The notes below the pieces were generated by a model. It saw nothing but the letters and a program-made list of their open reading frames with translations, searched no databases and was not told the origin of the DNA. DNA of 64,000 nucleotides, taken from the NCBI RefSeq assembly GCF_000027125.1, contig NC_017626.1; one strand, written 5' to 3'. This document shows, piece by piece, positions 3,446 to 52,452 of the stretch; the stretch's first letter is position 1; each line of letters begins with the position of its first letter. The position numbers were made by a program, and so were the translations under genes. The DNA comes from Escherichia coli 042 (lineage in GTDB: Bacteria; Pseudomonadota; Gammaproteobacteria; Enterobacterales; Enterobacteriaceae).

Positions 3446-4534
3446 TTACGCCAGTACGCCAATTGCCAGCGCGCGATCGATAAAACGAAATATCAGCTCC
3501 AGTTGGGAGCCATACTTATCTTCAAATGCCACTGTATCCGTATGCAGCTCGTTGTGATGCTTTCTGCACAAAGGCAACACAAAGAGATCATGTGCTTTTG
3601 TTCCCATTCCGCCCTGCCCGTGACCAATCAGATGATGCGGATCGTCGGCTGGCATACCGCAGCAAGCACACGGCTGTGTCTTAACCCAACGTGTGTATTT
3701 CTCCTTAACCCAGCGGCGACGTTTAGGCAGCTTCATGAAAGATTCCGGAGACTCTGGATCAACGGTGATGCTTACCACCGTCTTTTCCTGTGGTGATTTT
3801 TGTTGCTGGTGGGCGTAAGGCAACGGTGCAAGATTTTTTGTGCGTTGTTTCAATATGCTGGTGGCGGTCTGCTCTCCCGGTACGATGTCGCTTTCGCGGT
3901 ACACCGAGCAGATTTTTTCCGCTGGTAATCCCAGCGAACGACGCGATACAGCCTCAGGTAGTGCATCCACCACCTGATTGCAGACCGCCCACCAGGATAA
4001 TTCAGCCAAAGATAATTCCCGCTCCTGCGTACCGCTTATTGCGTGACGGATGACGTCAATCACCCATGCTGTCAGATTTTGTTGAGCAAGCAGCTCCAGT
4101 GATTCCGATGTCTGGTCACGCAGTTGGTTGTCGCAGTGCCAGCACAACACCATTGCGCCGGTACCATAACGGTGAATGACTGTTTCAGTGTGATGGTAAT
4201 CGCCATTAGGCCACTGGCAGGATGTAACATGACGTAATAGCCAGTCGGACAATGCGCCAACGCCGCCAGCAGCACGAATCACCCGTTCGTTACTAAAAAA
4301 CGGCAGCAATGTTTTGTCTTCCGCCAGCGGCTGGCGAACGGCAGGAACGACTCCGGATGGCAGATTACGCATGCTTTTTGGTTCCGGTTCCACCAGCACT
4401 CGAGGATTATGAAATATCTGTATGGATTCACGGCCCGGCTTAAGGACCACCAGCCCAAGCTCAGGCACCAGAACAGGTCTAAGTAATACCCGCACGTTAC
4501 CTCCAGATCCGTTGCTGGAAAGTGCGGGACGCAC
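3446..4534 (-). CDS. ydfU: Qin prophage DUF968-type protein YdfU (start may be internal to ORF)
   Basis: 362-aa ORF with CACCGMPADDPHHLIGHGQGGMGTKAHD motif; recalled YdfU. Confidence 0.75.
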   Translation of the reverse strand: MRPALSSNGSGGNVRVLLRPVLVPELGLVVLKPGRESIQIFHNPRVLVEPEPKSMRNLPSGVVPAVRQPLAEDKTLLPFFSNERVIRAAGGVGALSDWLLRHVTSCQWPNGDYHHTETVIHRYGTGAMVLCWHCDNQLRDQTSESLELLAQQNLTAWVIDVIRHAISGTQERELSLAELSWWAVCNQVVDALPEAVSRRSLGLPAEKICSVYRESDIVPGEQTATSILKQRTKNLAPLPYAHQQQKSPQEKTVVSITVDPESPESFMKLPKRRRWVKEKYTRWVKTQPCACCGMPADDPHHLIGHGQGGMGTKAHDLFVLPLCRKHHNELHTDTVAFEDKYGSQLELIFRFIDRALAIGVLA

Positions 4535-9012: not shown

Positions 9013-9192
9013 TTACCGCCAGTATTCAATGCACATGACCGCCATGAACACCCCTAAAAAAAGGGCATTTATATATCCAAATATTAATATCAAAACATCA
9101 ACTTTTTCCATATACCTTGCTGTGAAGATGATGGGCATACATGATGCGAACAACCAGAACGCAACAAACAAAAACTGCAATGCGTTTTTCAT
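9013..9192 (-). CDS. Small two-TM membrane protein (59 aa)
   Basis: AGGAGG 6 nt upstream of ATG; MKNALQFLFVAFWLFASCMPIIF...LILIFGYINALFLGVFMAVM hydrophobic. Confidence 0.45.
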   Translation of the reverse strand: MKNALQFLFVAFWLFASCMPIIFTARYMEKVDVLILIFGYINALFLGVFMAVMCIEYWR

Positions 9193-9446
9193 TATTCCTC
9201 CTACAATCAATGTGCAATTACATTTAAACACACCTCAATTTGGCCGGACATATAAATATCTAAACCAGAAAAAATCACTTACATAGCGTTACAAACTCTT
9301 TAGTCTAAAGGTTCATCGTAAAACATTCCCCATACTTATCAGTCCGTTCCGCGCCAGGTAGCTCATTGCCTTATCTGGCAACCTGTAATCAGGTTTCCGC
9401 TTTTTCAGTTGGCTGGTCGTTTAACCGACATAGTTAATCCATTAAT

Positions 9447-40383: not shown

Positions 40384-40530
40384 ATGGCAAAGCCGATCAT
40401 CACGCTCAATGGCCTAAAAATCGTCATTATGTTGGGAATGCTGGTCATTATTCTCTGCGGTATCCGTTTTGCCGCCGAGATCATCGTGCCGTTTATTCTC
40501 GCATTATTTATTGCTGTTATATATAACTAA
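40384..40530 (+). pseudogene. tqsA: tqsA 5' fragment (first 46 native codons, then island-derived I-Y-N-stop)
   Basis: [46 protein letters not shown] then frame leaves native sequence at 40521. Confidence 0.85.
40512..40520. repeat. attL core direct repeat TGCTGTTAT
   Basis: Identical 9-mer at 51546-51554; joining the flanks restores ...[18 protein letters not shown]... of TqsA. Confidence 0.65.
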
Positions 40531-40593
40531 TTTCACTTAACGCATTGATTTAATTAAATGATTTGCACTACAAAAAGTGCCATAAATCGCAAA

Positions 40594-40617
40594 ATGACTA
40601 CACCAGTGACTACACCG
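40594..40617. repeat. Arm-type tandem repeat ATGACTACACC-AGTGACTACACCG near attL
   Basis: Same 23-24 nt tandem motif present at 51395-51418 near attR in same orientation. Confidence 0.55.
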
Positions 40618-40934
40618 TTCGGTGCACTGTATGAAACAACGTGGAACAAATAGACACAAGAAATATACAGGCGGGTCATCTTTCCAGGGGGAAGCGCGCT
40701 AATTCATGAGGGGCGTTAATGTTGATATGGGGATCCCCATAACGGGGCTACCGGATTTTTTTTCCGGTTAACTGTTAATCAGGCTGGTGGGCTTTACCTG
40801 TTTTGTAGGAGTGGTCATTATGACCATTCAGACAATGACCTTAATCAGAACTTTTCGCTAAAAAATGACGTTGGTCACGTCGTCCGGAAAGCACAAAATC
40901 CCGTCAATTTTTAATTAACGGTTAAACCGTCTTT

Positions 40935-40980
40935 TGTCACGGCGTGTCACTGGTTGTCACTCTCCGTCACGGTATGTCGC
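40935..40980. repeat. Five GTCAC-type half-sites phased at exactly 10 bp
   Basis: tGTCACggcgtGTCACtggttGTCACtctccGTCACggtatGTCGC; GTCAC is the reverse complement of the GTGAC of the arm repeats. Confidence 0.5.
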
Positions 40981-40986
40981 TACTCG

Positions 40987-41268
40987 TTAACGCCGTAACC
41001 GCTCCGGCTTCTTCCAGTGGTACGTAATTTTCTCCGTTTCCCGATACAGTGCCACGCGGCGATTGTAGGCCAGCATTTCAAGAACGCGGATCCGTATGTT
41101 GCGCATATCCACATCATTAAGCTGGATACCATCACGGCGCATCACCTCAGCAACCACACGCGCGTAATTTTCGGCGGTCACGCTGTCCGGCTGCGTGGCC
41201 TGTTCGTCATGCTGCTGGCTGATTCCGGTAACGCGGCGGATTAATCCCAGTAGTTCGGCTTCTGTCAT
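40987..41268 (-). CDS. Hypothetical island protein (93 aa from MTEAELLGLIRR)
   Basis: ORF; start chosen downstream of cos copy 1 with GGGGG SD-like upstream; longer ORF-track N-terminus would read through cos. Confidence 0.35.
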   Translation of the reverse strand: MTEAELLGLIRRVTGISQQHDEQATQPDSVTAENYARVVAEVMRRDGIQLNDVDMRNIRIRVLEMLAYNRRVALYRETEKITYHWKKPERLRR

Positions 41269-41301
41269 TGTGCCCCCATCGCTCTGATAGTCTGGTGTCG
41301 T

Positions 41302-41366
41302 CGGGTCCTTCCTGGAATTATGGCCCGTTACGGGGCGGCGACCTCGCGCGTTTTCACTATTTATGA
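41302..41366 (+). other. Lambda-type cos site copy 1 (cosN GGGCGGCGACCT at 41333-41344), followed by ACCGGACAT repeats at 41383-41479
   Basis: cgggtccttcc...gttacgGGGCGGCGACCTcgcgcgttttcactatttatgaaaatttt closely matches recalled lambda cosQ-cosN-left-end sequence. Confidence 0.7.
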
Positions 41367-41547
41367 AAATTTTTCGGGATCCATGTCCGGTTTCTCTGCA
41401 AGTTAACCATATGAAAAATATAAAAACATGCTTTCCATGAACCGGACATGCGCAAAAAACAGACACTAAAACCGGACATCGAACCAGTTAACCGAAAGTG
41501 TGCACAAATCACATGCATTGCTGCGAGTGATTAACAAGTTATCGGCT

Positions 41548-41982
41548 TTACTGTTCTGTATCGGCTGATTGCTCCATGCTGGCACGGCGAACGCTTATGG
41601 CATGACGCCACCCAGCCAGAAAGCCAGCCATTTTATTTCGTGCCTTGCTCACATCTTCCGGTGAATAGCCGTAAATCTGCAAACCTTCATCAAATCGATG
41701 TTCTGTTTCTTCACTGGAGTACTCGTCACGCTCAGATGAAAGCAGCCTGGCAAACATAATTTTTTCCAGCGCACTGGTTTCTACGTGATATCTGATGGTC
41801 TCAAGACGGCTTTTACCTGAAGACCAAAGCAATGTATGCCCGATGTGATAACCGCCAGACTTTCCGCGATCCGCATTAAGATACGGCATCCCCTGTTTGG
41901 TCCATGCGCGAATAGTGGTTCTGTTAACCTTGAAATGTTCAGCTATTTCCTGCTGACTTACAAAACAAGCTTTATCAATCAT
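41548..41982 (-). CDS. Nu1-like small terminase / packaging-specificity protein (144 aa)
   Basis: N-terminus VSQQEIAEHFKVNRTTIRAWTKQGMPYL parallels lambda Nu1 VNKKQLADIFGASIRTIQNWQEQGMPVL winged-HTH. Confidence 0.65.
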   Translation of the reverse strand: MIDKACFVSQQEIAEHFKVNRTTIRAWTKQGMPYLNADRGKSGGYHIGHTLLWSSGKSRLETIRYHVETSALEKIMFARLLSSERDEYSSEETEHRFDEGLQIYGYSPEDVSKARNKMAGFLAGWRHAISVRRASMEQSADTEQ

Positions 41983-42049
41983 AATGTTACCTTAACTGCA
42001 TGGTTAAATATTAATCAAGTGGTGGTGGTGTCACCTTCACGGAAAAACG

Positions 42050-42115
42050 TCATAAATAGCGAAAACCCGCGAGGTCGCCGCCCCGTAACGGGCCATAATT
42101 CCAGGAAGGACCCGT
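42050..42115 (-). other. Lambda-type cos site copy 2, inverted relative to copy 1 (cosN complement at 42072-42083), 88 bp upstream of terS
   Basis: Reverse complement reads ...gttacgGGGCGGCGACCTcgcgggttttcgctatttatga; 63/65 identity to copy 1. Confidence 0.7.
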
Positions 42116-42137
42116 AAAAAAGCCGGATTTCTCCGGC
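42115..42137 (-). terminator. Rho-independent terminator ending capsid operon
   Basis: Minus strand GCCGGAgaaaTCCGGC followed by T-tract. Confidence 0.6.
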
Positions 42138-42143
42138 CTTGTC

Positions 42144-42557
42144 TCAGATGTTTTTCAGTATGCGATCGATGTCGCCGTCATCGCCCTGGTTTCTGCCATC
42201 GTATGCCATGCCAGCTGATACGGCTTGCGGGCTGTGCATGTCCATAAAGTTTTCAAAGGCTGCGGTAAGTTCCGGCGCAACCTTCGGACGTTCCTGCTCT
42301 ATGGTCATGCTAAGGATGCTTTTAGCCGTACCAACATCGATACAAGGCACGTTTGCCATTGCACGCAACAGCGGCTGATAGTCTTTATGCTCATGAAGCG
42401 CCATAATCGCATCAGCGCGCGGCTTGTCCTGCTCTTCCAGTTTGTTTAGTTGATGTACGGCCTCATAGGTTGATAAACCTCTGTCAGCCATTGCCCGCGC
42501 TTCGACTTTAAATTTACTCGCCAGCGGTAGCGTCATGATGCTTTCATTCGTTGCCAT
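42144..42557 (-). CDS. Hypothetical island protein (137 aa), last gene of capsid operon
   Basis: ORF co-directional and tightly spaced after D-like gene. Confidence 0.45.
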   Translation of the reverse strand: MATNESIMTLPLASKFKVEARAMADRGLSTYEAVHQLNKLEEQDKPRADAIMALHEHKDYQPLLRAMANVPCIDVGTAKSILSMTIEQERPKVAPELTAAFENFMDMHSPQAVSAGMAYDGRNQGDDGDIDRILKNI

Positions 42558-42569
42558 CGTTCCCCCTGC

Positions 42570-42905
42570 TTATCGGGCCAGCGGCTGAACGGATACGCCG
42601 GAACCCGCAAAGGCGGCGCATTTTTTCGCATCGGTGTCGACGCTCTCAGGCCAGTTAACGGCGGCAATATTGAATATCCCCGTCTTGTAACACTGTGCTG
42701 ATTTCTGCTTTGACGTGTCCACAGGGTACGAGGTCAGATAAACAGCCTTGCCAGATTCCTGACCATCCCACGGCTTAAACTCGCCATTGTCTGCCAGCAT
42801 CAGCGGGGTAAATTCCTGAATAACGCCAGCATCAGCGGCAAAATGTACCAACGTCGTGGATACCTGCTGACTGCCTGCAAATAACTCAATGTATGGAGTG
42901 TCCAT
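42570..42905 (-). CDS. Head decoration protein, lambda gpD homolog (111 aa)
   Basis: TPLMLADNGEFKPWDG...YKTGIFNIAAVNWPESVDTDAKKCAAFAGSGVSV parallels lambda D TPLMLDTSSRKLVAWDG...[35 protein letters not shown]. Confidence 0.8.
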   Translation of the reverse strand: MDTPYIELFAGSQQVSTTLVHFAADAGVIQEFTPLMLADNGEFKPWDGQESGKAVYLTSYPVDTSKQKSAQCYKTGIFNIAAVNWPESVDTDAKKCAAFAGSGVSVQPLAR

Positions 42906-42917
42906 AGAATCCCCCCG

Positions 42918-43973
42918 TTAACCAATTTTGACGGTAACAAATTTGCGAATATCTGCCGGTACCGGCTGCGGTGCACTGTGTGTCTGCACGTACTCAATCG
43001 CCGGATCGCCGTCCTCAATCCAGTTTTTCGGGTAAAACATGTTTTGTGTTGCGCCCGTTCTTACCGCTTCCTGATCCATTATCGCACCATAGGCCACCAG
43101 CCCTTTATTGTTGGTGTTACCCAGGACCAGCAAATCAGGCTCAAGGAAATATTTTTCGGTACCATCGCTGTCAGTGTATTTGCCGGAATAGACGATAAGG
43201 GCCAGATCACCAAGATAGCCTTTAAAGCTCACCACTTCGCCCAGGTTTTTACAGGCCAGTTCGGCGGCGGATTCTGAACCACGGGAAAGATCGTACAGCT
43301 CACGGAATTTTTTAAAGCTGCGTAATGTGCGCCATACCTCAGCGCCCATAATCATGACGTTTGCGGGGCAACCAGCCTGATCAGCATAAAGCTCGATGTC
43401 ATAGATTGGGTCGTGCATGTCTTTATCCTGCTCGGACCATTTTTTACCCTTGGCCTGCTCTATGATGCAGTTTTCCGGTATTTTCCAGTCGATTTCATAG
43501 CGTTCTATGCCTTCGCCCTCAATGATGTTTTTTCCGGTCGTTACCGCATTCACCGCCAGCCATTCCACGCGTGCCTTAATGGCGTTTATCTGGCGGCGCA
43601 TGTTGCCAGTAATCAGGCGCATACGGCGATAGGTAGGGTCGTTAAGCTGTGCCGGATCTTCTCCAGCCATGCGCATGATGGTTTTCGTTGGATCGATTTC
43701 GTGCTTTGGCTTCATGTAGCCAGGTTTGATTGTGCTGGTTTCGTACCCTTTATCGCGCTGAACCTGGCTACCCACCATAGGCGAACAAAACGCCGACATG
43801 GTGACTTCTTCAATGTCCAGGGTATCCAGCATGATGTTTTGCGTGCTGAATGTCGCCACGTTCGGGAAAAACAGCGTGGTAAACAGAGGGCTGAATTTAA
43901 AATCCGCAATATCCCCGCGATTCAGGTACATGAAAAGCTGGTTAGTGTTAAGTGCCGTTGCTTTGCCTGCCAT
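42918..43973 (-). CDS. Major capsid protein, lambda gpE homolog (351 aa)
   Basis: KPGYMKPKHEIDP, DPTYRRMRLITGNMR, VSFKGYLGDLALIVYSGKY, YPKNWIEDGDPA align along recalled lambda E. Confidence 0.85.
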   Translation of the reverse strand: MAGKATALNTNQLFMYLNRGDIADFKFSPLFTTLFFPNVATFSTQNIMLDTLDIEEVTMSAFCSPMVGSQVQRDKGYETSTIKPGYMKPKHEIDPTKTIMRMAGEDPAQLNDPTYRRMRLITGNMRRQINAIKARVEWLAVNAVTTGKNIIEGEGIERYEIDWKIPENCIIEQAKGKKWSEQDKDMHDPIYDIELYADQAGCPANVMIMGAEVWRTLRSFKKFRELYDLSRGSESAAELACKNLGEVVSFKGYLGDLALIVYSGKYTDSDGTEKYFLEPDLLVLGNTNNKGLVAYGAIMDQEAVRTGATQNMFYPKNWIEDGDPAIEYVQTHSAPQPVPADIRKFVTVKIG

Positions 43974-44179
43974 TATTCACCCCCATAATTTTTATGCATC
44001 CCAAGCGCCGCAAGTAAATAAGAGCGTACAAGTGAACCTATCGACGGCTCCGGCGTCATCAGCGGATCCAGTCCAGCCGCAACGCCAGCTTCATAGTTTT
44101 TTTTGTGGCGCTGCTTGAGCACCTCCACGATTTCGGGGCTTATGTACACCGAAACACCGCCTTTTTTCTCTTCAGCCAT
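43973..44179 (-). CDS. Small protein upstream of capsid gene, possible ribbon-helix-helix fold (68 aa)
   Basis: MAEEKKGGVSVYISPEIVEVLKQRHKK; GAGGA SD; stop overlaps capsid start. Confidence 0.35.
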   Translation of the reverse strand: MAEEKKGGVSVYISPEIVEVLKQRHKKNYEAGVAAGLDPLMTPEPSIGSLVRSYLLAALGMHKNYGGE

Positions 44180-44208
44180 AGTAAGAAATTCCTCTTCGAC
44201 TAAAAAAA

Positions 44209-44236
44209 TCATAACTGGATGTTTATCCAGTTATGA
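44209..44236. promoter_or_regulatory. Perfect 12-bp inverted repeat TCATAACTGGAT-gttt-ATCCAGTTATGA in capsid-operon promoter region
   Basis: Seen directly; 30 bp upstream of operon start; second palindrome ATTGCATtttATGCAAT at 44248-44264. Confidence 0.5.
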
Positions 44237-44388
44237 TTATAATCAGAATTGCATTTTATGCAATGATATTGAGTTATGTTGCAAATTATGAAATGATTAT
44301 CCCGATCACGAACGCCAGTGCATCCAAAAACCTCATATGCAAAAGCCCGATAAGAACCCTCTGACCTTATCGGGCTTTTTTTGGGCGC

Positions 44389-44410
44389 AAAAAAGCCGGA
44401 TTGCTCCGGC
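44389..44410 (-). terminator. Rho-independent terminator after 74-aa gene
   Basis: Same GCCGGA-loop-TCCGGC module plus T-tract; preceded by second hairpin 44345-44382. Confidence 0.55.
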
Positions 44411-44430
44411 TATGTGTGCTGTGTGCTGGC

Positions 44431-44655
44431 TCAGTCTCTGATCTCTTTCAGAAATTCTATCAATGCATCTATCTGTTCAGGATTTACCGCCAGCATTTCA
44501 CCGGATAGAGCACATCTCACAAAACCATGCTGATCCTTTTCAATCAGTGCGCCCGTCTCCAGGAATGCGCGGTAATCATTGATGCTCATCGTCTCCATGT
44601 TGTCAGCATGGTATTTATCACGCTGTTTTAATATCTCATCAAATTTCATCGGCAT
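44431..44655 (-). CDS. Hypothetical island protein (74 aa)
   Basis: ORF bracketed by terminators. Confidence 0.4.
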   Translation of the reverse strand: MPMKFDEILKQRDKYHADNMETMSINDYRAFLETGALIEKDQHGFVRCALSGEMLAVNPEQIDALIEFLKEIRD

Positions 44656-44751
44656 TGTTTTTTTCCTCTGTTGTGTCTGTTTGTTTCAGATAGTAACTAT
44701 GCCTGACCGTGACGAAAACCCGGTAATGCGCCATACCGTTTCAACTGGTGC

Positions 44752-44774
44752 AAAAAAAGCCGGATTTCTCCGGC
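44752..44774 (-). terminator. Rho-independent terminator after PerC-like gene
   Basis: GCCGGAgaaaTCCGGC plus T7 on minus strand. Confidence 0.6.
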
Positions 44775-44781
44775 TGTTTGA

Positions 44782-45054
44782 TTAGCTGTCCTGGTAATTG
44801 CGCCATATTTCATCACCAGCACCATCTATACCCATTTCGGCATAAGTGCGATCGACTGCCTTTTTCAGGTCTCCGAAATTATCCGGCGGCTCCGGTGCCC
44901 TCTGTGCCTTCCTTGAACATTCCAGCCGTCGCATCGTGATGTGATGCCGTTCCTTGTCTGTCTCCACCAGCTGCATGACTTCACCCCATCGCGCCGCCGC
45001 CCTCCGGTAAAAGCCTTTCGCCTCCAGTTCCTCCGCTATGCGGTCATGTACCAT
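44782..45054 (-). CDS. PerC/Pch-family transcriptional regulator (90 aa)
   Basis: AEELEAKGFYRRAAARWGEVM resembles recalled Pch/PerC signature (…LEAQGLWRRAAARW…); GAGGGGG SD before ATG. Confidence 0.55.
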   Translation of the reverse strand: MVHDRIAEELEAKGFYRRAAARWGEVMQLVETDKERHHITMRRLECSRKAQRAPEPPDNFGDLKKAVDRTYAEMGIDGAGDEIWRNYQDS

Positions 45055-45064
45055 CGTCACCCCC

Positions 45065-45475
45065 TCAGAACGAAATATCATCACCGTAAGGGTCATCGCC
45101 TCCCGCTGGTGGCTGATTACCCTGTGTGCCTGTGGTTTTGCGTCTGTTCCCGCCTGGACGTGCCGCGCGGGCACTGATTACGCTGTCTGCGATAACCTGC
45201 CAGCCCTGCCGCGTTTCTCCGTTCTGTCCGGTCCACTGGCTTACCTGCATCGTGCCGGATACGCTGGCAACATCGCCTTTTTGATGTTTAGCCAGGAAGT
45301 CGGCCTGTTTGCCAAATGCGATGACCGATAACCATAACGTCGCCTGTCCGTCCTGTGCCTGGCTGCATGGCAAAGATACCGCCATACGCGCCAGCGTCAT
45401 CGGTGTGCCCTTGCTGGTCTGTTTTACCTGCGGGTCGTCCACCAGCCGCCCGTAAGCGGCTATCTGTGCCGTCAT
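45065..45475 (-). CDS. ssb: Single-stranded DNA-binding protein (SSB)
   Basis: OB-fold region and Gly/Pro-rich tail ending DDPYGDDISF (cf. E. coli SSB C-terminal DDDIPF). Confidence 0.8.
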   Translation of the reverse strand: MTAQIAAYGRLVDDPQVKQTSKGTPMTLARMAVSLPCSQAQDGQATLWLSVIAFGKQADFLAKHQKGDVASVSGTMQVSQWTGQNGETRQGWQVIADSVISARAARPGGNRRKTTGTQGNQPPAGGDDPYGDDISF

Positions 45476-45723
45476 AATTCCACCTCTCCGGTTTTAACGT
45501 TGATGGTTGTTACCTGTTCCGCTTCGGCAATCTCCCGTTCTGTCAGCGTGGCAAAGTTTGCCGCCGCCGTGGTCATGAATGCGCTTATCAGGTCGGGATG
45601 TTCCTTCGCGTATCCTTCCCGCGTGTGGCGGTCTATCGTTCTGATTGCCACCTTTAAGGTGTGCTCAGTCATGTCTAACGCTTTATATTTTGGCTCTGTT
45701 CTGTCTCTGCGTTTTTGGGTCAT
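45472..45723 (-). CDS. Hypothetical small protein between ori and ssb
   Basis: ORF; start uncertain (45723 or 45672). Confidence 0.3.
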   Translation of the reverse strand: MTQKRRDRTEPKYKALDMTEHTLKVAIRTIDRHTREGYAKEHPDLISAFMTTAAANFATLTEREIAEAEQVTTINVKTGEVEL

Positions 45724-45734
45724 TTCTCGCAACC

Positions 45735-45926
45735 TCTCACTTTTTCGCCTCACTTTTTCAAGCGTCTCACTTCGTCGCAGTTGGGATTTTCGGTTTTTCT
45801 ATGTGTGTGTTTCATAAGTATTTTTTTACCCCTCACTTTTGAGGATGTATACAGGTCGAAAAGTGAGGGAGAGCGGGCTAATTTTGGCCCTCTTTCTATC
45901 CCCCTCGCTTTTGCTCCTCACTTTTA
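45735..45926. repeat. Iteron array (CTCACTTTT, at least 6 copies, both orientations) with AT-rich spacer: putative island replication origin
   Basis: Copies at 45735, 45748, 45766, 45832, 45858 (inverted), 45916; directly 3' of pri-rep gene. Confidence 0.55.
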
Positions 45927-47324
45927 TAGCGGCGCTACATCATCCCCATCGATACGAATAACCCCATCTTTTTCCAGCTTGTACAGCCAGCGCCGGAAGT
46001 TTTTCATTTCATACCCCAGCTTTTTCATGTCATCACGTAACAGCGGGATCGTGCACTTGTCGCCGTTCTGTGTGCGTGAACGGATGCACCCCCATAGCGC
46101 GGTATGGTTTTCCGTCTTGTTCCCTGCCTCCTCGATGCGCTCCAGTTCAACAGGAGGGCGCGGATCATCCACCACCACCAGCGACGTGATTAATTCACCG
46201 TCAGCGTCGGTAAAAAGCTCCACCACGCGTAAGTCATATGCGGCTTCTTTGAGTTCCTCCGCGTCCTTCATTTTGGTGCATGAGATAACCAGCGCTTCGC
46301 TTCCTGCGTCCTCCCTGCGTATCCGGTATTCAGCATCCAGCGAAGCACGAAATGCACTGGAACCGCGCGCGCCTTTCGTCTCATCCTTGCCGGAATGGTG
46401 AACCACCAGCACCGTGGCCCCTGTGCGTCGTTTCAGTTCGTCACAACCACGGATAAACGCCCCCATATCACGGGAATCATTTTCATCATTCCCACCAAAG
46501 CAACGCGCCAGCGTATCCAGAATAATCATGCGTACAGGTTTACCCGTTTCCCGCTCCACCTGACGGGCAGCGATAACCATTTCATCAACATCAAGCGGGG
46601 CAGCCGGAAAGATGGGGCGGTTTACCAGATACAGATTTTTCACCTGCTCATCGTGCACAACCTCCCAGGCTTTTACACGACGCGGAACACCTATACCGCC
46701 TTCACCAACCACATAGAGAACCGCACCATGTGCAACCCTGCGGCCTCCCCACTGGCGACCAGTGGCAACATGGCACGCCCACGATCCAGCAAGGAATGAT
46801 TTATAGGACCCGCTAGCCCCGTATATGCTGCATAGCGATACCGCCGGAATAATCCCCTTAACCACGTAATCCAGTTGCGTGTCGTATCCGGTAGATCCAA
46901 CGCTCATCGGTAGCGTGGTTTTTCGCTGGTGTTTTTTTTCTTCCGCCGGCTCTTTCCCGCGCACCCGTTCCAGGTATTCGCGCCAGTTCTCCCGCATATG
47001 GCTGTGCATCCCTTCGGGGTAATAATTCGCATCAGTTACACCCGCCGCCGCCAGCTTGTGCGCAATGGCATTAATATTTGATGGCCTGATGTGGCCTGCC
47101 TTGTACAGCCGGACACAATAGCGCCCCTCGTCGATGATTCTCAGGTCTGCCAGTTCATCCAGTTGATCATCAGCCAGCACAACGGGAGGCACATTATCGC
47201 CAGCCAGTCGCCCGTCCTGTTCCTGCCACTGTTTCGCATGTGCCCAGGCATCACTACCCGCAAAAATAATGACTTCGGTCATCTTGTCGTAAGGCTGTTT
47301 TTTTAAGTTCGGTGCGCTTTTCAT
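45924..47324 (-). CDS. Primase/replicase-type AAA ATPase (RepA/AAA_25-like, 466 aa)
   Basis: Walker A GASGSYKS, Walker B MIILDTLARCFGG, VVHHSGKDETKGARGSSAF sensor region. Confidence 0.8.
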   Translation of the reverse strand: MKSAPNLKKQPYDKMTEVIIFAGSDAWAHAKQWQEQDGRLAGDNVPPVVLADDQLDELADLRIIDEGRYCVRLYKAGHIRPSNINAIAHKLAAAGVTDANYYPEGMHSHMRENWREYLERVRGKEPAEEKKHQRKTTLPMSVGSTGYDTQLDYVVKGIIPAVSLCSIYGASGSYKSFLAGSWACHVATGRQWGGRRVAHGAVLYVVGEGGIGVPRRVKAWEVVHDEQVKNLYLVNRPIFPAAPLDVDEMVIAARQVERETGKPVRMIILDTLARCFGGNDENDSRDMGAFIRGCDELKRRTGATVLVVHHSGKDETKGARGSSAFRASLDAEYRIRREDAGSEALVISCTKMKDAEELKEAAYDLRVVELFTDADGELITSLVVVDDPRPPVELERIEEAGNKTENHTALWGCIRSRTQNGDKCTIPLLRDDMKKLGYEMKNFRRWLYKLEKDGVIRIDGDDVAPL

Positions 47325-47620
47325 TTCTTGCCCCTGAATCCGTTAACCATGGTTTTCAGCTTCTGGATGTTTGCCCGTGCCCTGGCGTTGCTGGTGGGCA
47401 CGTTATGCGGCGCGGTCTGTACCAGAGAAAAATCACGCCGGAACTGATAAACAGGCATCACGCAATCATATTCGTAACCTTCACGGCGGTAGGTTACGCG
47501 CCGTTCTTCCACGTCCTTAATCATTACCGTGCCGCCGTACTGGTCGCGGTAAATATCACCGCGCGTAAATTTAGGGTGAGTGTTGCCACTGGCAGTTAAG
47601 CCAGAATATTTAAGTTTCAT
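47321..47620 (-). CDS. Hypothetical island protein (99 aa)
   Basis: ORF in tight operon; stop overlaps pri-rep start. Confidence 0.45.
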   Translation of the reverse strand: MKLKYSGLTASGNTHPKFTRGDIYRDQYGGTVMIKDVEERRVTYRREGYEYDCVMPVYQFRRDFSLVQTAPHNVPTSNARARANIQKLKTMVNGFRGKK

Positions 47621-47625
47621 TATTT

Positions 47626-47859
47626 TTATTCTCCGGTGTGCTGTTCTTTATATCTGTCGTGCAATAGATCTATTTCTTGCAGTTCCATTATTACAGGCTC
47701 AAGAAGCGTTATTAATGCTGTGGCAATTCTTGATTTTTGTTTGTCGCGTTCATTGTCGCCAAGTGTTTCAAGCCATATGCGCAATATTTCCATCATGTTT
47801 TCACTGTGAGAAAGTGCAAGAAATGCGCGGTCTATTGTTTGGTGGTAAATATCACGCAT
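47626..47859 (-). CDS. Hypothetical island protein (77 aa)
   Basis: ORF in operon. Confidence 0.4.
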   Translation of the reverse strand: MRDIYHQTIDRAFLALSHSENMMEILRIWLETLGDNERDKQKSRIATALITLLEPVIMELQEIDLLHDRYKEQHTGE

Positions 47860-48319
47860 GGCTTACATCCTCAGGAAATTTTCTTCTATAACGCGCCTCT
47901 GCCACATATTCCGCATAATCGGCGGCGATATTCAGTACATCAAGCCCCGTTGATTTATATTCTCTCGTGGAAAGTAAGAAAAAAGCCGCTCTAATAAGTT
48001 CTGGCATTGACGAAAGCGCATCAGCCGCATCATCAGGAACGCCGGAAAATTCCTGTTTCAGGGAATTAAAACGATCATCACGCATAACCCCCCCCCCATT
48101 TTCACAATCAGCAATCAGGATAGCTTTGGCCTCATTCAGCGCCGTATCAGCACTAAATTGCATGACAGCCAGTGAGTGAGGAACGAAAGCACCGGCATAT
48201 TCTGTTTCGCTGGTGGCGTGCTTATGTGCCCTGTCCGCGATAACAGAAATATCAATCAGCGCGTGCATCAGCGTTTTGATGGCTTCGGCGGCTGCGTCCG
48301 GTGTGGTTTTATTGTGCAT
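47852..48319 (-). CDS. Hypothetical island protein (155 aa)
   Basis: ORF in operon. Confidence 0.45.
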   Translation of the reverse strand: MHNKTTPDAAAEAIKTLMHALIDISVIADRAHKHATSETEYAGAFVPHSLAVMQFSADTALNEAKAILIADCENGGGVMRDDRFNSLKQEFSGVPDDAADALSSMPELIRAAFFLLSTREYKSTGLDVLNIAADYAEYVAEARYRRKFPEDVSHA

Positions 48320-48521
48320 AAAGCATCCCCTGAATATTCGTGTTAATCATTCCGGCACGTTTTGTGATTTCCTGTAATGATTCCCTTGTGGCGACAATTG
48401 CTTCATCTGGTAAGTGGTAATTACACACCACGCGACCTTTATCCACATTGACCAGTAGCTGCCCTGTGAATTTCTCACGAAACTGAATGCGGTTAAGGTC
48501 AGTAAGTGACAGATTAATCAT
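48309..48521 (-). CDS. Hypothetical island protein (70 aa)
   Basis: AGGAGG immediately upstream of ATG at 48521. Confidence 0.45.
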   Translation of the reverse strand: MINLSLTDLNRIQFREKFTGQLLVNVDKGRVVCNYHLPDEAIVATRESLQEITKRAGMINTNIQGMLYAQ

Positions 48522-48711
48522 GGCGCACCTCCTGACGAATACGGGCGGCAAATACAGCAACACAACCGGACGGGCAACGGTTACGCGCTTCGCGTTCCGT
48601 CCAGGCGGTTACGTGGATGATTTGAGATTCTCCGGCACTCAGTGCCAGAAAACGCCACACAAAGGCCGTTTGTGTGTGTACAAGGTGTGGTATATGATTT
48701 ACAGCAACCAT
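48514..48711 (-). CDS. Hypothetical island protein (65 aa), first gene of leftward operon
   Basis: AGGAG SD upstream of ATG at 48711. Confidence 0.4.
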   Translation of the reverse strand: MVAVNHIPHLVHTQTAFVWRFLALSAGESQIIHVTAWTEREARNRCPSGCVAVFAARIRQEVRHD

Positions 48712-48804
48712 AACGGCTCCTAGTTTACGTTGTTGGTTAGAAGCCCTGCGAGTGGTAACGACACTTGCGGGGCTTTGTCTTTTCATCGATTACCTTGATA
48801 AAGG

Positions 48805-48884
48805 TGTCAGCCACTATATTAGTAACGGGTGTCAGCCACGTCAATAGTGTTTTTCCGTTTTCTTGTGTGTATACTGTCAGCCAC
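48805..48884. promoter_or_regulatory. Three direct repeats TGTCAGCCAC in divergent promoter region, with TATACT -10-like element
   Basis: Repeats at 48805-48814, 48830-48839, 48875-48884. Confidence 0.5.
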
Positions 48885-48905
48885 CTAATAACGAGGAAAT
48901 CAGAT

Positions 48906-49085
48906 ATGGCAACAAAAGCAGTTAATGCAAAATCCAAAAAGCTTGAGGCTCGAGTACCACACGCAATAGCTGATGCTGTAGAAAATTTAAAGGAAGATGG
49001 CGAAAGTACAGGGCAATTTATCGTTTCGGCACTTGAAGGCGAGATCAAACGCCGCCAGCGCCGCAAGGCCAAAGAATCAGAATAA
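48906..49085 (+). CDS. Ribbon-helix-helix (CopG/Arc-like) putative repressor (59 aa)
   Basis: KKLEARVPHAIADAVENLKEDGESTGQFIVSALEGEIKR fits beta-strand/helix/helix RHH pattern; divergent from main operon. Confidence 0.5.
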   Translation: MATKAVNAKSKKLEARVPHAIADAVENLKEDGESTGQFIVSALEGEIKRRQRRKAKESE

Positions 49086-49127
49086 TCACTATCAGCGCCG
49101 TGGTGTGAGGTATTACGGCGCATTGCT

Positions 49128-49316
49128 ATGCAGGACAACACAATGACCGATAAAGAATTGACCAAAACATTATCACCGGCACGGAAAAGACGGCGCAGAA
49201 AGATAGAGCATGAATCAGAAAGATTCGCACCATGTGCTTTTGCCCTTGAGCAATTCCTTAAAGAGTACAGGGAAAAGCGCTCATTGCAGGTATGGCAACG
49301 AACTGAACCAGACTGA
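49128..49316 (+). CDS. Hypothetical small basic protein (62 aa or shorter from MTDKEL)
   Basis: ORF followed by hairpin plus T7 at ~49410-49440. Confidence 0.3.
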   Translation: MQDNTMTDKELTKTLSPARKRRRRKIEHESERFAPCAFALEQFLKEYREKRSLQVWQRTEPD

Positions 49317-49585
49317 TTGCATTGCCCACCAGCCTGATAGCGGCTATCATCCCCGTGCTTATGTTTGGGATCACACACACAAACGGCGCAGCGGGTTATC
49401 TGTTCAGAAAGGCGGCTCCATTTCGGGGCCGCTTTTTTTATACCTGAAAAACCCCAATTTTGTTGTTTTTCAGTTTCACCAGGGCGAACGAATCCCCGCC
49501 CACGTTCTGGCGTATATTCAATCTTCATGGTTATAGCTCTGTGTTCAGATGATTGATGTGTGGCGGCTGCGTGCCGCCAGCGTGA

Positions 49586-49774
49586 TTAATGAACTGCCTT
49601 GCAGCTATCCTTCCAGGCCAGAACCTCGGATAAAGACCAGCCAACGGAACGACCGCCAAGTTTACGACGTGATGGGAATTGTCCGGCCTTTTCCAGGCGG
49701 TAGCGACACGTACGGCTAAGGCCGGTTAGTTTTTCGCATTCTTTTTCACGTATAAACCGATCAGTGCTTAACAC
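49586..49774 (-). CDS. alpA: AlpA-family excision/transcription regulator
   Basis: 62 aa MLSTDRFIREKECEKLTGLSRTCRYRLEKAGQFPSRRKLGGRSVGWSLSEVLAW. Confidence 0.8.
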   Translation of the reverse strand: MLSTDRFIREKECEKLTGLSRTCRYRLEKAGQFPSRRKLGGRSVGWSLSEVLAWKDSCKAVH

Positions 49775-50048
49775 TATTGCCCCCCCTTTCGTTTCTTAAA
49801 GAGTCATCAGGTGTCTTATTGTGTCGTATTGTTCCCGCTAGAGTGATGAATGGCAAATATTGAGGATGTATGATTTACAGAAAATGAAACAGTAAGAATA
49901 AAATCTTTTAAATTCATGTTAATACAAAGGCATAAAATATTGTTTCATGCCTTTTTTCTCGCTCTTTAAAGAGTGATTCGCTAGTGTATAAAAAACCAGT
50001 GACACATTAAAAATCAGCCACTTATAAATCTGTATGCTTTTTCGCCTC

Positions 50049-50123
50049 TTGTTCGTGGTTGTTCCACATTGTTGCTCATTGTTGCACGTTGTATCTGTTC
50101 GCATATACAGTATGCGCATACTG
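50049..50123. promoter_or_regulatory. Five TTGTTSC-like repeats at ~10-bp spacing plus 16-bp perfect palindrome CAGTATGCGCATACTG (50108-50123) in int-alpA intergenic region
   Basis: Seen directly. Confidence 0.4.
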
Positions 50124-50140
50124 AAAAAACACGAAAAAAA

Positions 50141-51370
50141 TTATTTTCTTCTGGCTACTGGTAGCGTGGTTACGTTTTCATGTGTTCCCGCCAGTATCCC
50201 TAACCGCTCCGTCCACATATCCAGCGCATTGCGTTTAGCATCCAGATAACGGGAATGATTATAAACTCGCTGCATTCCTGGCATCTGGTGGCCTGTAAGC
50301 TGCTCCACGACATGCGGATCAACGCCTAAATCGTTCAGCATGGTTGTAAAGGTGCGCCGGATGTCATGCAGTGACCAGTGAGGATGATTAAGCCTCCTGT
50401 GCGCTAATCTTCCATACTGCGATACGCTGGCCTCCTGTTTCACTTCCCCCAGCAATAAGCCCGTGTGCCTGTTCTGCTCCACCAGCTGCGTGACGAACGG
50501 CAGGATCGCTTCCGGTATGGGCCGGAATATTGCGACCTTCGTTTTGCTGTGCTCCTTCGGAACGGTCCATAGCATTTCCGTAAAATCCCACTCCCCGATC
50601 TCCGATAACCTCAGTTCTACCGTTCTGGCTCCGAAGACAATCAGGAGGCGGATTAACGCGACGTAGTAAGGGGAGAATATTTTTTTGTCCAGTGCCTGCA
50701 ATAATTCGCCAAGTTCTTTGTTACTTAAGACACGTTCGCTTATATCCGGTTTTTTCCCAACGTCCGCCACGTTCAGATCGTCCAGAACGTTGCTGATTGC
50801 ATAGCGCCGCCTACGGCAGAACTTAAGCGCCTGTTTGCACGCCTGTAGCACGAATCCGGCAGTAACAGGCGTTCGCTTTGCCACCTGGTCAAAACAGGCC
50901 AGCCAGTGCCGTAGCTCGCATTTATCCAGCGGCATAGCACCAATCTGCTGTATTACGTGATTATTAAGTCGCCTTTTCAGGGCGATATAATCCACGCGGT
51001 TTTCCTTTACGTAATACTCAAGCCAGTAGGTGAGCGCATCGCCAACCGTTACCGGCTTTAACGCTTCCTGTACGGTGTAATTAAGCTCATGACGTGGATT
51101 TTTCCCCTCTGCCAGCCATGCGCGACACTGGGCGGCTTTTTCCCTGGCTGATTTCAGGCTCAGATCAGGATAACTTCCCAGCTTAATGCGTTCGGGTCGT
51201 GTCTCCCTTCCCGTTCCGGCCCTGTATGTGAAATACCAGGTCAATTTCCCTGATGTTAAATATTTCACGCTCAGGTTTCCGCCATCACTATAAAACGTGT
51301 TTTTCTCCGCTGGCTTACCATGAAGTTTCCTTAGCAAGGTATCGCTCAGTTTGTTCATTGCTCTGCTCAC
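50141..51370 (-). CDS. int: P4-type tyrosine integrase (start GTG 51370 or ATG 51358)
   Basis: 409-aa ORF; catalytic region ...HDIRRTFTTMLNDLGVDPHVVEQLTGHQMPGMQRVYNHSRY; adjacent to attR. Confidence 0.9.
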   Translation of the reverse strand: MSRAMNKLSDTLLRKLHGKPAEKNTFYSDGGNLSVKYLTSGKLTWYFTYRAGTGRETRPERIKLGSYPDLSLKSAREKAAQCRAWLAEGKNPRHELNYTVQEALKPVTVGDALTYWLEYYVKENRVDYIALKRRLNNHVIQQIGAMPLDKCELRHWLACFDQVAKRTPVTAGFVLQACKQALKFCRRRRYAISNVLDDLNVADVGKKPDISERVLSNKELGELLQALDKKIFSPYYVALIRLLIVFGARTVELRLSEIGEWDFTEMLWTVPKEHSKTKVAIFRPIPEAILPFVTQLVEQNRHTGLLLGEVKQEASVSQYGRLAHRRLNHPHWSLHDIRRTFTTMLNDLGVDPHVVEQLTGHQMPGMQRVYNHSRYLDAKRNALDMWTERLGILAGTHENVTTLPVARRK

Positions 51371-51394
51371 GTTTTACCCCCTCTTTACGAAAAA

Positions 51395-51418
51395 GTGACT
51401 ACACCAGTGACTACACCG
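51395..51418. repeat. Arm-type tandem repeat GTGACTACACC-AGTGACTACACCG near attR
   Basis: Matches 40594-40617. Confidence 0.55.
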
Positions 51419-51545
51419 ATCGTTGCACAAAGGGCTACAACGTGAAACAAGCTGGAACAAGGAAAATCACAAATCTGTTGATAATCAAAAACATAATGCA
51501 CAGCCTGAAACATTATGAAACAGCAAAAAACACCAAATGATAAAA

Positions 51546-51554
51546 TGCTGTTAT
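51546..51554. repeat. attR core direct repeat TGCTGTTAT
   Basis: Identical to 40512-40520. Confidence 0.65.
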
Positions 51555-51567
51555 TCTTAACCCGCTG

Positions 51568-52452
51568 GTGCAACACATGGTCCGCTGGCGAGTGCCGCGT
51601 GTACTGGCGGTGTCGATTTTGATGACCATCATCGTGATGGCGATGGTGTTGCTGTTAGCTTATCTGGGTTCCGCGCTCAACGAGTTGACGCGGACGTTAC
51701 CGCAATATCGCAACTCTATTATGACGCCGCTGCAAGCGATTGAACCGTTGTTGCAACGCGTAGGGATTGATGTCTCAGTTGACCAACTGGCGCATTACAT
51801 TGATCCGAACGCGGCGATGACGTTGCTCACCAACTTATTGACGCAGTTATCTAATGCCATGTCATCAATATTTTTATTGCTGCTGACGGTGCTGTTTATG
51901 CTGCTCGAAGTGCCACAATTGCCCGGAAAATTTCAGCAAATGATGGCGCGTCCGGTTGAAGGGATGGCGGCGATTCAGCGTGCGATTGACAGTGTTTCTC
52001 ATTATCTGGTGCTGAAAACAGCCATCAGCATCATCACCGGCCTGGTCGCCTGGGCGATGCTCGCCGCACTCGATGTTCGCTTCGCTTTTGTCTGGGGATT
52101 GCTGGCCTTTGCGCTTAATTACATCCCTAATATTGGTTCAGTTCTCGCAGCAATTCCCCCTATCGCTCAGGTACTGGTGTTTAATGGCTTCTACGAAGCG
52201 TTGTTGGTGCTGGCGGGATATCTGCTGATTAATCTGGTCTTCGGCAATATTCTGGAGCCGCGCATCATGGGACGTGGGCTGGGGCTTTCGACATTGGTGG
52301 TATTTTTGTCGTTGATTTTTTGGGGATGGTTGTTAGGACCGGTGGGTATGCTGCTTTCCGTGCCGTTGACAATTATTGTCAAAATTGCGCTTGAACAAAC
52401 AGCGGGAGGTCAAAGCATCGCCGTTCTGTTAAGCGATCTCAATAAAGAGTGA
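51568..52452 (+). pseudogene. tqsA: tqsA 3' fragment (lacks first ~55 codons; internal GTG/ATG present)
   Basis: [26 protein letters not shown]... continues TqsA frame to native stop. Confidence 0.85.

Follow-up and report, generated by a model that had tools for sequence, protein, structure and literature searches.

Phased TTGTTyC repeat arrays as candidate AlpA sites in an EcCICFT073-type island of Escherichia coli 042

Which protein recognizes the five short direct repeats that lie between the integrase gene int and alpA in a genomic island of Escherichia coli 042? We addressed this question in a 64,000-nucleotide stretch of contig NC_017626.1 (hereafter the window), where the repeats, which we call the distal array, occupy positions 50049-50095. 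Together with an adjoining palindrome, they fall within an ~11-kb island inserted in tqsA, which is a classical Gram-negative phage-inducible chromosomal island (PICI) of the EcCICFT073 type. In Gram-negative PICIs, and likewise in the capsid-forming PICIs (cf-PICIs), the master switch is AlpA; a description of an AlpA operator or of TTGT arrays was not found in the PICI literature that we searched. The analyses described below led us to propose, with a probability of about 0.55, that the distal array and its sister arrays in the island are phased AlpA sites, working like those of Apl in phage 186 or of Cox in phage P2. The kind of element is already known, being the phased binding sites of a protein that acts both as a recombination directionality factor (RDF) and as a regulator.

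Phased repeats between int and alpA and in the attachment-site arms

A first-pass annotation had described five TTGTTSC-like elements at ~10-bp spacing, followed by a perfect 16-bp palindrome, in the interval between the 3' end of int and alpA. All three points were borne out. The units (TTGTTCG at 50049, TTGTTCC at 50059, TTGTTGC at 50069 and again at 50079, and TTGTATC at 50089) follow each other at a period of exactly 10 bp on the plus strand, antisense to int and alpA. The palindrome occupies 50108-50123, and the interval is bounded by the int stop codon (TAA, 50141-50143) and the alpA start (49774), both on the minus strand. An off-phase sixth unit-like element, TGTTCGC, is present at 50097-50103 (plus strand), where relatives having the type B spacer (see below) carry in-phase units. 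A small open reading frame (ORF; 50034-50249, plus strand) overlapping the array was dismissed, as whole 10-bp units have come and gone among relatives, which would put it out of frame.

The non-random part of this sequence is the phasing and not the heptamer count. For the heptamer TTGTTSC by itself the window shows no enrichment (34 matches, 26.8 expected), whereas chains of three or more TTGT spaced exactly 10 bp apart number only three on both strands of the 64 kb, all of them inside the island. They are the distal array (five units), a four-unit chain at 51430-51460 on the minus strand just upstream of int, whose fifth unit comes 12 bp further on, and a three-unit chain at 40639-40659 on the minus strand. 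Shuffled windows gave 0.005 chains of three or more TTGT per window and none of four or more.

We built a matrix from the repeat units and scored three units at the 10-bp period with a cut-off of 12 bits. Every match reaching the cut-off was inside the island, and the best score in the other 53 kb was 9.7 bits. The same scan of a cf-PICI locus (L001) and of EcCICFT073 itself (L020) found arrays in the islands and no scoring match in the chromosomal flanks. Besides the distal array, the window has an alpA-proximal array at 49809-49835 on the plus strand (TTGTGTC at 49819, TTGTTCC at 49829 and a degenerate unit at 49809), which has four units in type B spacers. An int-proximal array is located at 51424-51472 on the minus strand (TTGTTCC, TTGTTTC, TTGTAGC and TTGTGCA at 10 bp, then TTGTGAT 12 bp away), and is conserved in 20 loci of three clades. 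A weaker array of nTGTTTy units with a 10-bp period adjoins the attachment (att) core at 51494-51533 (minus strand), and the left arm carries TTGTGTC, TTGTTCC and TTGTTTC at an exact 10-bp period (40633-40659, minus strand). Two units, TTGTGTC and TTGTTTC, at 44671-44687 (plus strand) are placed just upstream of the ORF 44431-44655 and the capsid genes, and L001 has an extra three-unit array, TTGTTCGTGGTTGTTCCACGTTGTTCACTG, just upstream of its capsid operon. Because the same phased motif appears in both att arms, by alpA and before some capsid operons, TTGTTyC looks like the general recognition array of an excisionase-type protein and not a promoter-specific element.

The arms also indicated which sites the integrase itself may use. 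The att core, a 9-bp repeat TGCTGTTAT, is found at the left junction (40512-40520) and at the right junction with tqsA (51546-51554), and the arrays at 51424-51472, 51494-51533 and 40633-40659 lie in the att arms by the integrase arm-type sites or the core. These probable arm-type sites are a doubled 12-bp motif, GTGACTACACCaGTGACTACACC, at 51395-51417 (plus strand) and a second, co-oriented copy in the left arm at 40594-40616 (plus strand). The centres of the GTGACTACACC doublets are ~89 and ~144 bp from the core, one per arm. In an alignment of 20 loci from three clades, with Int proteins 53-100% identical, the order along the int-proximal arm is the core, four to five nTGTT(T/C) units at 10 bp, an AT-rich stretch, four to five TTGTnnC units at 10 bp, a GGTGTAGTCAnnGGTGTAGTCA doublet (12 bp) and the int start codon.

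The attP site of satellite P4 (L271) has annotated arm repeats of the same kind, tandem 12-bp doublets in both arms at ~75 and ~134 bp from the core (3942-3965 and 4151-4174), with the asymmetric geometry seen for the GTGACTACACC doublets; unlike here, no clear TTGT-like phased array was seen between the P4 doublets and the core. The doubled attP motif of the helper-embedded PICI (HE-PICI) family, tgTGTATTGCantgTGTATTGCa, is likewise a 12-bp doublet in two co-oriented copies asymmetric about the core. Its TGTATTGC doublets are reported at 81 and 132 bp from the core, and the authors suggested that they bind four Int arm domains. The HE-PICI doublet thus corresponds to the GTGACTACACC doublets and not to the TTGT repeats, and HE-PICIs differ from the island studied here in having almost no int-alpA spacer and no obvious TTGT arrays. 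As the layout is the same as that of the P4 arm repeats and the HE-PICI doublets, we assign the 12-bp doublets to Int as its probable sites, which would leave the numerous 10-bp units for another protein. The TGTATTGC doublet was reported in the HE-PICI paper to be absent from other PICIs; analogous GTGACTACACC doublets are present here, which suggests that the doublet layout, though not the HE-PICI sequence, extends beyond that family. Satellites integrated at the fis site also have a doublet, GTGTAGTC.

Conservation of the spacer followed the same unit structure. Nine spacers of E. coli islands, representing five integration sites (tqsA, roxA, ilvL, allE and abgR), were compared in an alignment; the TTGT cores are invariant and the 3-bp spacers between units variable. 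In 25 distinct homologous arrays comprising 30 distinct units, positions 1-4 carry 1.79 bits each, the C at position 7 carries 0.88 and positions 8-10 carry 0.36-0.51, values that are somewhat inflated since the chains were picked by TTGT. A conserved core with spacers free to vary is the pattern of RDF arrays. The number of units in distal-type arrays is five or six, so that they grow or shrink by complete turns of the helix. The spacers are of two types. In type A (the window, L004, L142, L143, L145 and, by identity, EDL933-type islands) five units are followed by the palindrome, and in type B (L002, which equals EcCICFT073, L003, L005 and L144) six in-phase units occur without it. One type A variant from IMG/VR (L168) has six units by exact duplication of a single unit (TTGTTGCTCA, two copies). 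In a clade integrated at the cspD site, AlpA shares 58% identity and is altered both in its recognition helix and in the wing, and the unit core moves from TTGT..C to GTTCG both in the arm and upstream of alpA, the Int doublet being unchanged. We consider this shift modest evidence for a shared binder other than the Int arm domain.

AlpA as the candidate binder and its competitors

The island encodes a small winged-helix protein of the RDF fold, AlpA, as this class of array requires. The AlphaFold2 model of AlpA is a winged helix (pLDDT 86), and its structure matches include the GIsul2 excisionase (TM 0.83), RdfS, TorI and Pukovnik Xis. Also among the fold matches was BldC, a MerR-like DNA-binding protein whose structure has been solved bound to DNA. 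AlpA further matches structure 8c3t (2e-6); no account of DNA sites for it turned up in our literature search. RDFs typically recognize direct repeats that are spaced by one turn of the helix (PMC7498355), and the distal array consists of at least three same-orientation direct repeats at about that distance. As it lies ~1.4 kb from the att core, it matches only the second, promoter-side array of the dual-function RDFs.

EcCICFT073 has the same Int and AlpA proteins as L002, and published data on it bear directly on this array. Mapping of the published primers placed the PalpA-lacZ fragment at 7128-7583 of L020. The fragment begins 33 bp within int, ends at about codon 19 of alpA and includes both the distal and the proximal arrays. 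This fragment was activated by pBAD-alpA in trans in DH5alpha without Int, and AlpA overexpression led to Int-dependent excision and replication (PMC6092414). In PICMIs, AlpA acts as an excisionase and not as a transcription factor. The suggestion of the first-pass annotation that the repeats are a regulatory input through AlpA autoregulation is therefore reasonable, because the AlpA-activated fragment contains the array; it was too narrow in that the motif also occurs in the att arms and before some capsid operons.

We envisage the following. AlpA would bind the TTGTTyC units head-to-tail, one protomer per helical turn, at about six arrays. In the att arms, an AlpA filament would bend the DNA between the doubled Int arm sites and the core and so bring about Int-dependent excision. 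In the int-alpA spacer, a filament on the distal array, possibly together with one on the proximal array, would mediate the known positive autoregulation of alpA. The outcome would be a switch-like commitment once a helper phage has begun alpA expression. The analysis itself established the arrays, where they lie, how they are conserved and the fold of AlpA, and published work the response of the fragment to AlpA; we infer the identity of AlpA as the binding protein, the promoter that is used and the mode of activation, which may be upstream contacts, wrapping or looping between arrays, or relief of silencing.

Several known systems resemble this scheme in part. The closest in layout is 186 Apl, a small excisionase-type protein whose direct-repeat sites are one helical turn apart, with one array at att and a second at the promoter region pR-pL (PMC7498355). 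Unlike PICI AlpA, which activates its own promoter (PMC6092414), Apl represses pR-pL; the motif and the protein family also differ (AlpA/MerR-like here, Cox/Apl there), and the AlpA sites here are predicted ones. P2 Cox recognizes at least six boxes at 10-11 bp spacing, for which filament or wrapping models have been proposed, and acts at attP, at the phage promoter Pc and at a satellite promoter, P4 PLL, just upstream of an AlpA-family gene. In contrast to AlpA, it is encoded by the helper and not by the satellite, the helpers here are lambdoid phages, and its consensus is TTAAA(G/C)NCA against TTGTTyC. P4 Vis (ORF88) is a satellite protein of the AlpA family annotated both as excisionase and as transcriptional regulator, but is only a distant relative of PICI AlpA (PMC6092414). 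The Xis sites of lambda provide a further precedent. At X1-X1.5-X2, winged-helix Xis protomers assemble head-to-tail at ~10-bp spacing between an Int arm site and the core; this micro-filament is similar to the one proposed here, whereas lambda has three sites in one arm and no promoter array, compared to at least 12 units in two arms plus promoter arrays in the island.

Certain observations weigh against AlpA as the reader of the arrays. Fillol-Salom et al. found AlpA to be without effect on a Pint fusion (PMC6092414), though arrays lie just upstream of int; their Pint reporter primers did not match L020 exactly, and that fusion may or may not have carried the arm arrays. Binding data for any PICI AlpA were not found in the literature searched. 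Within the spacer, a terminator-like hairpin parts the distal array from the promoter-like sites near alpA, a candidate -10 element is covered in part by the proximal array in a manner more like repression than activation, and other conserved blocks, such as the two copies of TTAAAGAGT, could be the true AlpA target. The matrix scan of L020 gave no array before the capsid genes of EcCICFT073. Finally, Int and AlpA diverge together across clades, and covariation cannot cleanly separate the two. The same holds for the HE-PICI loci, where alpA directly follows int without clear TTGT arrays. We also carried out a word-based protein search for distant AlpA homologues, which gave 19 matches, and a genome scan, which gave 13 loci; most of these loci are fis-site satellites with an int-ORF-alpA layout, informative for the arms and not for the spacer.

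Int is the obvious competitor for the arms. The TTGT units could be arm-type sites for its N-terminal domain, with the copy downstream of int acting as a decoy or as an Int-dependent regulatory site of alpA. Int does have an arm-binding domain, the units are directly oriented in both arms like lambda P'1-P'3, and the motif is kept wherever the N-terminal domain of Int is kept. We nevertheless regard this as unlikely, given ~12 or more units in attP for four Int protomers, a 10-bp period, and a different motif, the 12-bp GTGACTACACC doublet, that fits the P4 arm-repeat geometry. Integrase arm sites would number ~4-5, as tandem 12-bp doublets in each arm, a description that the TTGT units fail and the GTGACTACACC doublets fit. 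The PalpA fragment, moreover, answers to AlpA without Int (PMC6092414), and arrays also precede the capsid operon. Replication initiation is a still more remote role. The repeats are phased and adjoin an A/T-rich tract that might serve as an unwinding element, and the unit resembles the type I iterons of P4 (TGTTCACC). Origin iterons were rejected, as the distal array is unchanged or conserved among islands with an AAA_25/RepA helicase (the window and L002), a DUF5906 primase (L001 and CFT073) or a DUF927 protein (L005), and a distinct iteron set, four copies of CCTCACTT, lies directly downstream of the rep gene.

The arrays could instead sense a protein of the helper phage, an excisionase or Cox-like winged-helix factor that binds the repeats and starts alpA transcription; this is compatible with later binding of AlpA. 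Helper phages induce alpA through a factor that was not identified in the EcCICFT073 work (PMC6092414), and in EcCIMP1 the alpA reporter responds to helper induction even in a delta-alpA mutant. In P4, three 10-bp direct repeats at 9176-9205 match the cox-box just upstream of vis and PLL, where P2 Cox activates PLL, and crosstalk between the excisionases of a PICI and its helper has been reported. Lambda X1, TATGTTGTGTTTT, shares GTTGTGT with type B units, which we take as a lead only. On the other side, the present data connect no phage protein with the motif; lambda, phi80 and the CFT073 prophages are inducers one and all, although they differ; and the same arrays stand in the att arms, where AlpA and Int excise without a phage (PMC6092414), so that an island-encoded binder is needed anyway. 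We think it improbable that the arrays sense a helper protein. A combined version, to which we give slightly less weight than that, would treat the arrays as shared excisionase docking sites, at which a helper Xis or Cox-like protein nucleates on the int-alpA array and switches alpA on, AlpA then taking over for autoactivation and excision. If true, this would be the lambdoid/PICI counterpart of P2 Cox on P4 PLL, and the long-sought helper signal of Gram-negative PICIs would be the helper excisionase.

The AlpA of Pseudomonas did not serve as a model for activation. That protein is a large antiterminator, the N-terminal segment of which binds RNA polymerase, and it uses a single AlpA-binding element (GGGACG) between -35 and -10. 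PICI AlpA, with 62 residues, is a winged helix only, and no GGGACG element was present between -35 and -10.

Control elements of the alpA spacer and the palindrome

Read in the alpA sense, the spacer has the order int stop codon, T-rich tract, palindrome (type A only), distal array, TATACA block, hairpin, the promoter-like sites P1 and P2, proximal array, ribosome-binding site and alpA. The first of these elements form a conserved A/T tract with the int stop codon at 50124-50143 (minus strand). The most conserved block of the spacer, TTTAAAGAGTGATTCGCTAGTGTATAAAAAACCAGTG at 49966-50001, has -10-like hexamers in both directions, TATACA on the minus and TATAAA on the plus strand. The hairpin at 49926-49954 has a 12-bp stem set between an A-run and a T-run (-12.9 kcal/mol, z = -4.3), and resembles a terminator for both directions that would divide the distal array from the region next to alpA; its CAT/ATG pairing is changed to CGT/ACG in L003 and L005, apparently in a compensatory manner. 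P1 (TTAACA-16-TATTCT, 49895-49922, minus strand) and P2 (TTGCCA-17-AACAAT, 49828-49856, minus strand) are consensus matches only. The -10 of P1 is conserved and its -35 is not. The -10 hexamer of P2 lies inside a repeat unit, and the arrangement in type B is alike (TTGCCA-17-CACAAT).

The distance from the distal array to the alpA start, downstream of it, is 275-325 bp, and the proximal array is ~220 bp away. For a transcript that would begin at the TATACA element (49985-49990), the distal array would be ~70-120 bp upstream. The first-pass annotation had equated the repeat region with the alpA promoter. The array does lie in the int-alpA spacer, but it is beyond the terminator-like hairpin; because of this and of its distance from the gene, the label 'alpA promoter' can only be inferred.

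A hairpin upstream of alpA was also seen in the fis-site satellites (L006-L017), where int, an overlapping ORF and alpA succeed each other. A terminator-like structure, GCCCTCG...CGAGGGC followed by a T-run, stands just before the alpA start there, ~10-45 bp upstream of alpA (locus position 4001), and holds two GTTCG units 10-11 bp apart.

The palindrome (CAGTATGC-GCATACTG, equal to CAGTATGCGCATACTG) has no second copy in the window. Chance alone would give 0.22 such 16-mers when three mismatches are allowed, so that its statistical weight by itself is modest. It is exact in all five aligned type A spacers from E. coli, in which ~6 of the preceding 13 bp are variable, and the 40 IMG/VR contigs with an exact palindrome in this context all have the same arrangement. 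A looser pattern search gave at least two further contigs with a central C>T change. A terminator or RNA hairpin was rejected for this element, as the terminator scan was negative, the T-run precedes the stem on the int-sense strand and the fold z was -1.4 to -1.8. The palindrome is absent from type B spacers, EcCICFT073 included, and EcCICFT073 is still activated by AlpA and induced by helpers. The palindrome is therefore a separate addition in one sub-lineage and cannot belong to the general mechanism, which corrects the first-pass annotation in this respect.

Type A spacers may in addition contain a LexA (SOS) operator, CTGT-N8-(A/C)CAG at 50096-50111, overlapping the palindrome and adding an SOS gate. 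The LexA matrix was built from a set of known SOS boxes, which themselves score 12.7-26.8 bits. With it, the LexA-box-like 20-mer ATCTGTTCGCATATACAGTA (CTGT-N8-ACAG, 50093-50112), which overlaps unit 5 and the left half of the palindrome, scored 15.4 bits. The three best matches in the 64 kb (44213-44232, 49982-50001 and 50093-50112) are all in the island, and CTG-N10-CAG is retained in all type A variants, the inner bases being variable. However, the score of this site (13.2-15.5 bits across variants) is at the bottom of the range of real boxes, the palindrome itself reaches only 5.0 bits and the region is AT-rich. In EcCICFT073, alpA was not induced by mitomycin C without a helper (PMC6092414), though that island is of type B. 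We consider the 50093-50112 site a weak candidate and an SOS gate in the spacer a doubtful proposition, below the helper-protein readings.

The other two matches are observations in their own right. With the same matrix, TAGTGTATAAAAAACCAGTG at 49982-50001 is the second-best match in the 64 kb (16.0 bits) and lies in the most conserved spacer block over the -10-like hexamers of both strands. The best, AACTGGATGTTTATCCAGTT at 44213-44232 (22.2 bits), is upstream of the ORF 43973-44212 and the major capsid gene, and EcCICFT073 has AACTGGATGAACATCCAGTT at the equivalent place (L020 13410-13429). This suggests an SOS-controlled packaging operon, as in operon I of SaPIs, the Staphylococcus aureus pathogenicity islands.

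The island and what the arrays would mean

EcCICFT073 itself has the same architecture as the window island. In the latter, int (50141-51370, minus strand) encodes a P4-type tyrosine integrase with an arm-binding domain (Arm-DNA-bind_3, 1e-18; Phage_integrase, 3e-16), and alpA (49586-49774, minus strand) encodes the 62-residue AlpA (Phage_AlpA, 5e-17). Further products are DUF4222, a RepA-type helicase, a single-stranded DNA-binding protein, PerC, a lambda E-type capsid protein and a D-type decoration protein. In a near-identical locus, tqsA is annotated as split. Downstream of alpA, two ORFs overlap on opposite strands (48737-49528, minus; 48765-49085, plus), one of the two being a 263-residue ORF without a Pfam match; the 106-residue plus-strand ORF sits where L002-L005 and L020 have an opposite-strand gene annotated YlcI/YnfO. 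An Rfam scan of the whole island (40400-51700, E<=1) gave no match.

The four copies of C(G/C)CCTCACTT are placed at 45741-45925, directly downstream of the RepA-type helicase gene, and are probably the replication origin of the island; PICI origins have been reported at this position relative to rep. Two copies of the lambda-type cohesive-end sequence GGGCGGCGACCT, inverted relative to each other and ~740 bp apart, are present in the island, at 41333-41344 (plus strand; inside the ORF 40987-41466) and at 42072-42083 (minus strand). With these two cosN copies at 41333 and 42072, the array and palindrome were rejected as a cos site.

Comparison of the loci indicated that the modules of such islands are strongly mosaic. 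Replication genes are unrelated between the window (45924-47324, AAA_25 helicase), L001 (9924-11678, DUF5906 primase) and L005 (2740-4863, DUF927), and int-alpA modules that are the same or nearly so adjoin a classical PICI late region in some islands and a full capsid-forming region in others. The 641-bp int-alpA segment was found in 876 of 5,426 complete E. coli genomes. In an O55:H7 strain it is 100% identical and is joined to a cf-PICI packaging module and a different primase.

The conserved TTGTTyC motif is a signpost of the region that controls alpA, of the two att arms and, for some islands, of the capsid operon, and so offers concrete targets for studies of AlpA. Separation of the probable Int arm sites (the 12-bp doublets) from the probable RDF sites would aid the annotation of PICI attP sites. 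The arrays bear on how Gram-negative PICIs are induced and, although not surprising in principle, their distribution suggests that excision and transcriptional commitment may be coupled in these islands through one small protein, as in 186 and P2.

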